Origin: Escherichia coli | GTDB taxonomy: Bacteria > Pseudomonadota > Gammaproteobacteria > Enterobacterales > Enterobacteriaceae | DNA: 5,573 bases | Assembly: GCF_003334765.1 (NCBI RefSeq) | Contig: NZ_QOWT01000064.1 | Direction: 5' to 3' (one strand) | Shown here: one piece after another, positions 62-391 of the stretch | How positions within the stretch are numbered: the first letter of the stretch is position 1 | Layout: the number at the start of each line of letters is the position of its first letter | Program-made: the position numbers and the translations under genes | The notes under the pieces: generated by a model | What the model saw: the letters and a program-made list of their open reading frames with translations, nothing else | Told to the model about the DNA's origin: nothing | Database searches by the model: none

Positions 62-253
62 AAAGGTCATATCATCTTTATGTTCTTCGACGGCGAGCGC
101 AGTGCACTGTTGTATGGGCTTATCGGCACTTGCCTTCTGAACGACATTGATCCGGAAGAGTATCTGCGCCATATCCTGAGCGTACTGCCGGAATAACCTT
201 CCAACCGTATTGATGAACTCCTGCCATGGAACGTAGTTCTCACCAATAAATAA
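62..253 (+). pseudogene. IS66-family transposase TnpC, C-terminal fragment with in-frame TAA at 194-196
   Basis: Same reading frame continues on both sides of TAA 194-196 (LPE*PSNRIDELLPWN); no start codon or N-terminal domains present; terminates at TAA 251-253. Confidence 0.6.
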
Positions 254-283
254 GCATCAATATGATTCTCCATTAACGCTTAC
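62..283 (+). mobile_element. IS66-family insertion sequence, right-end remnant (TnpC C-terminal coding fragment plus putative terminal inverted repeat)
   Basis: Plus-strand frame 62-253 translates to KGHIIFMFFDGERSALLYGLIGTCLLNDIDPEEYLRHILSVLPE*PSNRIDELLPWNVVLTNK*, matching the conserved C-terminus of IS66-family TnpC transposases (recalled consensus ...GGERAA.YSLI.T.KLN.IDP..WL..VL..I...P.NR.DELLPWN). Sequence ...CGCTTAC at 277-283 is GTAAGCG on the complementary strand, the recalled 5'-GTAAGCG terminus of IS66-family inverted repeats, 30 bp past the tnpC stop. Upstream of about 62 the frame is closed (stop at 53-55), so only the 3' end of the element is present. Confidence 0.55.
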
Positions 284-300
284 CTTTTCTCCGGCTATTT

Positions 301-352
301 TTGATTTTTTTTGCTTTTCCCCGCCACTTTATGGTGATTATCACATCAATAT
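301..352 (+). promoter_or_regulatory. Putative promoter/operator region of the cassette: -35-like TTGATT (301-306) and TTGCTT (311-316), weak -10-like GATTAT/CAATAT, and an 11-bp perfect palindrome GTGATTATCAC (334-344)
   Basis: AT-rich 108-bp spacer between the IS66 end (283) and ATG 392. Hexamers are imperfect and spacing to the best -10 candidates is 18-19 bp, so the promoter call is weak. The palindrome is exact (GTGAT-T-ATCAC) and overlaps the -10 candidates. Confidence 0.25.
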
Positions 353-391
353 ACATCGACAGATATTAACGTAACTGAAGTGAGGTGAAGC

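Follow-up and report, generated by a model that had tools for sequence, protein, structure and literature searches.

Insertion sequences of the IS66 family carry terminal inverted repeats that begin 5'-GTAAGCG. Within the IS1111 group, IS4321 and IS5075 insert into the terminal repeats of Tn21-family transposons, one mobile element thus serving as the target of another. Both kinds of sequence meet at the left edge of the locus described here. The gene cluster to their right has a described counterpart in Salmonella Typhimurium, the rikA (STM3547)-STM3548-STM3549-STM3550 locus, reported in 2026 (PMC13432705).

The DNA analysed (the window) comprises 5573 bp of the Escherichia coli chromosome. 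Some part of the window was matched in all 5426 complete genomes, and 1885 genomes carry at least 80% of it, with the top matches being 99.6% identical. The closest annotated genome is that of strain FY26 (locus L001), in which the window lies in an IS-rich island beside ldtA-cobT-cobS. From left to right, the RefSeq annotation of this locus lists the transposase of ISEc45 (IS110-family), a 108-bp "transposase domain-containing protein" pseudogene (window 89-196), a PfkB kinase pseudogene, a glutamine amidotransferase, a DMT transporter, a phosphotriesterase-related protein, a ggt fragment and an ISL3 pseudogene.

The E. coli cluster has the same gene order and content as the Salmonella Typhimurium locus (PMC13432705), and its upstream module is conserved. 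Unlike that locus, it is situated in an island beside cobUST, with an IS66 relic on one side and an ISL3 pseudogene on the other, and its rikA is damaged in most E. coli strains looked at. Our analysis indicates that window 76-283 is very probably an inert IS66 fossil that borders an imported segment and was split later by ISEc45, and that the cassette keeps its own upstream module, where transcription likely starts. The features of the left part of the window are listed in Table 1.

Table 1. Features at the left edge of the window and in the first cassette gene (window coordinates).
Feature	Position	Strand	Remarks
ISEc45 transposase-proximal end (IS110 family, IS1111-like layout)	1-75	-	rest of the 1444-bp element lies left of the window
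ISEc45 transposase ATG	16-14	-	RBS is the complement of 23-29
ISEc45 subterminal inverted repeat AAAGGTCATA	62-71		other repeat TATGACCTTT
CT core dinucleotide at ISEc45 insertion point	76-77		present once only in the uninterrupted relic
IS66-family right-end relic	76-283	+	distal 208 bp of a 438-bp relic split by ISEc45
TnpC C-terminal coding remnant	77-253	+	corresponds to about IS682 TnpC residues 476-537; natural stop TAA at 251-253
In-frame TAA in place of Trp codon TGG	194-196	+	two G-to-A changes
Sole sigma-70-like match in window 1-700	237-266	+	TTCTCA, 18-bp spacer, TATGAT; directed toward the cassette
Non-coding terminal inverted-repeat region	254-283	+	reverse complement begins GTAAGCGTTAATGG; terminus at 283
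Gap between IS66 terminus and conserved module	284-296		13 bp; unalignable to other genera
Native rikA upstream module	297-391	+	95 bp; conserved; putative promoter assignment
T-rich motif ATTTTTGATTTTTTTTGCTTTT	297-318	+	in the upstream module
-10-like hexamer GATTAT	336-341	+	conserved CACA directly after
Shine-Dalgarno sequence GAGGTG	382-387	+	in the upstream module
rikA (STM3547 homologue: DeoR-type HTH and PfkB ribokinase)	392-1602	+	annotated ATG at 392

Extent and decay of the IS66 relic

A preliminary description of this DNA had recognised a TnpC-like tail at the left edge of the cassette, and this similarity proved to be significant. Translated in the frame of base 80, window 77-253 reads FMFFDGERSALLYGLIGTCLLNDIDPEEYLRHILSVLPE*PSNRIDELLPWNVVLTNK*, the asterisks marking stop codons. 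With the tryptophan restored at the internal TAA, the translation matched Pfam DDE_Tnp_IS66_C (PF13817) over model positions 2-39 of 39 (E=1.9e-15). A tblastn search with IS682 TnpC residues 460-537 aligned to the remnant with 81% identity, and at the nucleotide level IS682 and ISEc23 copies are 87-88% identical to window 88-283. The ATG at position 80 was considered as a real start and rejected, as it encodes an internal Met of ...KNFMFF... in TnpC.

The relic can be read without interruption in strain CRE1540 (L002 5771-6208, 438 bp), where it is equivalent to IS682 positions 2082-2533 of 2533 (83% identity, E=6e-136) and where TnpC residues 394-537 are scattered across three reading frames. 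It is collinear with the last 452 bp of IS682 and ISEc23, at 82-83% identity overall and 87-88% over the last ~200 bp. With these two elements it has in common the C-terminal TnpC motif LPEWPSNRxDELLPWNVVLTNK, the natural stop codon and the terminus ...ACGCTTAC, which reads GTAAGCGT on the opposite strand. In contrast to them, the relic keeps only 17% of the element and is without IRL, tnpA and tnpB; its tnpC carries two frameshifts and a 12-bp deletion (GSDH missing) besides the TGG-to-TAA change, and 15 private substitutions fall in its last 160 bp.

The reconstructed 438-bp relic contains neither tnpA nor tnpB nor a left end, and it lacks the complete tnpA-tnpB-tnpC set with both ends that a functional member has. 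As only the equivalent of IS682 2082-2533 is left, we file the sequence as a relic derived from an IS66 member and not as a functional member. What survives of its genes is about the final quarter of tnpC, itself disabled, so that the relic cannot transpose or make transposase. The preliminary description had proposed a comparison with related genomes to find a complete copy of the element. These provided the uninterrupted relic. A search of 72,556 plasmids yielded no intact relative closer than ~84%, so that none of the named ISs is the parent element.

The right end of the relic reads ...AACGCTTAC and closes at base 283, the position at which the preliminary description had placed a putative inverted-repeat terminus. 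The reverse complement of 254-283, GTAAGCGTTAATGG, has the 5'-GTAAGCG start of the family. The same start is borne out on intact IS682 (L003) and ISEc23 (L004), which begin with GTAAGCGT at both ends, each read on its own strand, and finish with ...GACGCTTAC. Both intact elements are flanked by 8-bp target duplications, AGATACAT for ISEc23 and TCTTTCTC for IS682, which on the right come after the same GCTTAC. Seven further IS66 tails in a nine-sequence alignment could be aligned to the window up to 283 and diverged beyond, confirming 283 as the common end point of the IS66 copies. The proposed distance of 108 bp between this terminus and the first cassette gene is likewise correct and corresponds to 284-391, up to the rikA ATG.

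Bases 284-291 (CTTTTCTC) would be a candidate target-site copy if the IS inserted here; they are the sole copy, the left end being missing. The IS may have inserted beside the cassette either in E. coli or already in the donor. An IS extending past 283 was also considered, given that IS682 loci match the window to 293. It was rejected, as the extra bases belong to the flank of that IS682 copy, including its duplication TCTTTCTC. Window 284-291 resembles this target duplication of an unrelated IS682 insertion (L003 3697-3704), and the resemblance extended the BLAST match to 293. The likeness could be due to chance or to a weak IS66 target preference.

The in-frame TAA within the TnpC tail had been taken as a sign of decay, and the comparison with other copies bears this out. 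In the alignment, the equivalent codon is TGG in IS682, ISEc23, four further IS66 copies (L005, L006, L051 and L054) and a relic in K-12, while TAA was present in all four sampled lineages of the relic locus (the window, L002, L047 and L048). Relic-specific substitutions were defined as changes at positions that are invariant in six other IS66 copies. Fifteen such substitutions fall in the last 160 bp. All but one of them (14) are GC-to-AT, the two that gave rise to the TAA among them, and six relic-specific GC-to-AT substitutions are located within 254-283. Judged from the aligned copies, this spectrum is the one expected for unconstrained decay.

The TAA and the truncation might instead be assembly artefacts, or strain-specific lesions in a live IS66 copy, and the window does have private differences from its nearest relatives, among them a 4-bp deletion in rikA. 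Against this, the TAA occurs in four independently sampled strains that are 97.8 to 100% identical to the window over 76-391, all RefSeq genomes inspected list the relic as an incomplete pseudogene, and the junction is common to ~1980 genomes. We therefore regard an artefact or a private lesion as extremely improbable. RefSeq names it as an IS66 family transposase or transposase domain-containing pseudogene.

By BLAST, the junction (window 76-391) was detected in 1980 genomes and the start of the cassette (284-700) in 1992. The agreement of these counts implies that relic and cassette are inherited together in ~2000 E. coli genomes. A separate IS66 tail relic is present in K-12 at the edge of the CP4-44 prophage (L049 2501-2662, between tmaR/yeeX and CP4-44 genes). 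It has the same terminus as the window and an intact TGG codon. IS66 relics thus recur at island borders.

ISEc45 within the relic and its target site

The preliminary description had assigned window 62-391 to an IS66 end and its junction with the cassette. The relic and its terminus are indeed present in this interval; however, IS66 sequence begins at 76. Bases 1-75 belong to ISEc45, and 62-75 consist of the ISEc45 subterminal repeat AAAGGTCATA and four further bases. Genomes without ISEc45, such as that of strain CRE1540 (L002), align to the window from base 76 only. There, the continuous relic reads ...GGAAATAAAAA-CT-TTATGTTCTTCGACGG..., and the junction AAAAA-CT-TTATG of L002 corresponds to AAAAA-CT-[ISEc45]-CT-TTATG in L001. 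In FY26 and in the window, the 1444-bp ISEc45 is thus situated between two copies of CT, inserted at 75/76.

In L001, the coding sequence of the ISEc45 transposase ends at locus position 8016, which is window position 16, and the window holds only its first five codons. The full L001 copy is an IS110-type (DEDD) transposase, matching NCBIfam NF033542 (IS110 family RNA-guided transposase) with E=8e-83 and 278 bits vs a cut-off of 140.

The insertion of ISEc45 inside the tnpC relic explains why the window opens with unrelated sequence and why the upstream part of TnpC seemed to be missing. The preliminary description had suggested that the IS is 5'-truncated or rearranged, and both are the case: ISEc45 lies at 75/76, some 230 bp of relic follow on its far side, and the relic is then truncated at the IS682-equivalent position 2082 of 2533. 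The reported absence of upstream TnpC sequence accordingly applies to the truncated 5' part, but not to the ~230 bp that continue beyond ISEc45.

BLAST summaries of the ~2000 genomes give bands and samples. In an evenly spaced sample of matches to window 1-110, ISEc45 was present at the relic locus in 6 of 40 rows. This suggests that it occupies the relic locus in roughly 200 of ~2000 genomes (~10%), a figure that is a sample-based estimate and not a count. We infer that the ISEc45 insertion is younger than the truncation of the IS66 relic.

ISEc45 was found at one site and in one orientation in diverged IS66-family tnpC genes (window 1-77; L001 6632-8077; L005, L006 and L050-L055). In the sampled matches, ISEc45 ends were joined to IS66 sequence in 27 of 27 rows. 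The junction was identical in the 10 loci examined, which include chromosomal islands and plasmids (among these loci are pAA-EA11, CFT073 and E2348/69), and the IS66 hosts are only 84-87% identical to one another. The target reads TCTCGGAAA(G/T)AAAAA(C/T)T, followed by the CT core and (T/A)(T/C)(A/G)TGTTCTT, or in compact form TCTCGGAAAKAAAAAYT-CT-WYRTGTTCTT. ISEc45 therefore shows site- and orientation-specific insertion with a core dinucleotide and no conventional target duplication. In the sampled loci, it appears to be specialised in inserting into another insertion sequence.

A comparison with IS4321 and IS5075 shows both likeness and difference. Like them, ISEc45 is an IS110-family element with subterminal inverted repeats that inserts in one orientation at one site in another mobile element. 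Its target, however, is a coding site in IS66-family tnpC (the GKKN(F/Y)(M/V)FF region) and not a transposon terminal repeat. Literature searches for ISEc45, and for IS1111 together with IS66 and the IS110 family, found no description of an ISEc45 target preference.

The layout of ISEc45 is IS1111-like: its repeats are subterminal, and the transposase gene is followed on its 3' side by 250 nt of non-coding sequence. The fold predicted for this region (L001 6632-6890, minus strand) is more stable than that of shuffled sequences (z=-2.87). It contains an unpaired AUAAGAGUUU that is identical to the element-end/core/target junction. A k-mer search of the non-coding region returned this single 10-mer, equal to the right junction, which is insufficient to define a guide RNA; complementary 6-mers between the region and the target occurred at chance level. 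Rfam matches to the ISEc45 region and to window 1-700 were all below threshold and attributable to chance. The region bearing AUAAGAGUUU could be part of a candidate guide (a seekRNA or bridge RNA, as expected in the IS110 family and complementary there to the target and the element ends), and we offer it as a lead. Tentatively, and with somewhat more doubt than conviction, we propose that ISEc45 is an RNA-guided parasite of IS66, of the IS110/IS1111 type, whose guide would be set to one conserved tnpC site such that even a long-dead relic is still recognised; this preference is perhaps undescribed.

Since ISEc45 inserted into the dead relic at its usual IS66 site, the target was still recognisable after decay. 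That ISEc45 uses the same site in the dead relic as in live IS66 copies could be taken to mean that the relic is retained for a function, either as a preferred landing pad for ISEc45 or as an insulator of the cassette from upstream transcription. The GC-to-AT spectrum and the multiple disabling lesions nevertheless indicate that there is no selection on the sequence. A scan of window 1-700 found no terminator-like structure, and the role of a target is passive, with no evident benefit to the host. Retention for function is thus very unlikely, and the relic is better described as an inert fossil.

The imported rikA cluster and its upstream module

The cluster to the right of the relic encodes, in this order, a DeoR-HTH/PfkB kinase, a glutamine amidotransferase-like protein, a DMT transporter and a phosphotriesterase-related protein (RefSeq, NCBIfam and homology). 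A scan of one genome per species found it in Citrobacter, Salmonella diarizonae, Klebsiella, Budvicia, Proteus, Providencia and others. Nucleotide homology to the nearest IS-free loci, those of Citrobacter, Salmonella and Klebsiella, extends from window 297/298 to 4766 and includes the ggt fragment; ggt also adjoins the cluster in Citrobacter and S. diarizonae. The E. coli cluster is an imported fragment, ~76% identical to the Citrobacter and Salmonella versions. The extent of the homology shows that the E. coli segment was imported from a Salmonella/Citrobacter-like chromosome. Its left homology edge is found 14 bp from the IS66 terminus, which confirms that an IS66 right end forms the left boundary of the cassette, as the preliminary description had stated. 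The ISL3 pseudogene lies at the right edge of the segment.

The ggt fragment (window 4473-4790) is part of the imported segment and no piece of the resident E. coli ggt. The fragment is frameshifted, and the ISL3 pseudogene truncates it. The right boundary (window 4790-5573) consists of this ISL3-family transposase pseudogene, which has an internal stop. In strain CRE1540 (L002 10024-11595), ISL3 abuts a truncated phosphotriesterase gene, so that the right junction differs between strains.

Codon 81 of rikA is TAG (T at window 632) in most E. coli copies examined. In Salmonella, the functional start of the kinase is M90 (PMC13432705), which is equivalent to window 659-661. As the codon-81 TAG lies upstream of M90, the annotated rikA pseudogene may still yield kinase. 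The window itself has CAG at this codon; here the frame is lost before the catalytic region through a private 4-bp deletion near 1362, which affects the C-terminus of the kinase. Strain JNQH497 (NZ_CP091925) has an intact rikA.

With 108 bp left between the IS terminus and rikA, the preliminary description had proposed that transcription of the cassette could depend on IS-proximal or IS-derived promoter elements. The conservation of 297-391 in IS-free loci speaks against such a dependence. The module was aligned upstream of rikA in every enterobacterial locus, with a left edge that is identical across seven genera. Despite this common edge, Citrobacter, Salmonella, Klebsiella, Budvicia, Proteus and Providencia have unrelated genes further upstream, and the module begins at the same point in at least five unrelated genomic contexts. 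A conserved edge next to unrelated neighbours suggests that these 95 bp are a regulatory region of the cluster's own, left whole by the IS66 insertion.

Across genera, the T-rich motif at the start of the module takes the forms (A)TTTTTGnTTTTTTTTG(C/G)TTTT and TTTTTG(C/T)TTTTTTTTG(C/G)TTTT. A -10-like hexamer is located 19 bp downstream of the TTG(C/G)TT of the motif; it is GATTAT in E. coli and TACTAT, TGTAAT or TATAGT elsewhere. The motif (window 297-318; upstream of rikA in L008-L044) keeps this fixed distance of 19 bp in seven genera; Proteus and Providencia have two or three copies of it. The motif is a candidate for an UP-like element or for an operator bound by the DeoR-type N-terminal domain (residues 1-89) of RikA.

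A consensus sigma-70 site was found neither in 284-391 nor in the aligned module of S. diarizonae or Proteus, which are IS-free. Scans for consensus promoters and terminators in the window and two IS-free homologues returned no site above chance and did not locate the rikA promoter, and a repeat search of window 1-700 gave nothing meaningful. With no consensus sigma-70 site detected in the module, it is conservation that places the promoter there.

The IS66 insertion could alternatively have removed the native promoter, leaving the cassette to be transcribed from the IS tail, for example from TTCTCA-18-TATGAT at 237-266 with a start at ~273. This is the sole sigma-70-like match in window 1-700 and is directed at rikA, and two relic-specific substitutions (C>T at 263, G>A at 265) turned what had been TACGGT into its TATGAT. 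The lack of a consensus promoter within 284-391 would fit such a loss, as would the position of the only consensus-like site of S. diarizonae, 158-187 bp upstream of the ATG in sequence that is absent from E. coli. However, one such match in window 1-700 compares with 2.5 (sd 1.8) expected in shuffles, and the S. diarizonae site is likewise at chance level (1 vs 1.7 expected). GC-to-AT decay runs across the whole relic, so that an AT-rich hexamer is to be expected there, and the identical left edge of the module in its unrelated contexts argues for a promoter belonging to the cluster itself. The site at 237-266 is probably a chance match, and we consider transcription from the IS tail improbable.

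From a Salmonella clone with 278 bp of upstream DNA, RikA was made independently of arabinose (PMC13432705), a result that is compatible with a native promoter without placing it. From the comparison of loci, we infer that transcription of the cassette most likely starts inside the module and not in the IS.

Origin of the locus and significance

Taken in sequence, these observations are consistent with the following course of events. An IS66-family element of ~2.5 kb, with ISEc23 and IS682 as its nearest intact relatives, would have decayed to its last 438 bp. Its intact right terminus at 283 marks the left junction of a chromosomal segment carrying rikA-STM3548-STM3549-STM3550 and the ggt fragment, which was imported from a Salmonella/Citrobacter-like genome into the IS-rich island beside cobUST. 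Relic and cassette are inherited together in ~2000 E. coli genomes. Later, in roughly one tenth of those genomes, including this one, a site-specific ISEc45 would have inserted at the CT inside the tnpC relic. The cassette keeps its 95-bp upstream module, whose first base is 14 bp from the IS terminus and which most likely contains the transcription start.

The IS66 relic is ordinary, and the RefSeq annotation pipeline already marks it as a pseudogene. Finding remnants of IS66 at island junctions is routine, and the present one is of little importance in itself. The useful results are corrections: the left 75 bp of the window come from a different element, and the "missing" TnpC is explained by the insertion of one IS into another. 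Nor is there cause to invoke IS-driven expression, since the rikA cluster has retained a conserved upstream region of its own. The T-rich repeat motif conserved ahead of rikA in seven genera, which may serve the DeoR-type domain of RikA as an operator, could merit a closer look, as could the choice of target by ISEc45. The strict targeting of IS66 tnpC by ISEc45 bears on how RNA-guided IS110 recombinases choose their targets in nature.
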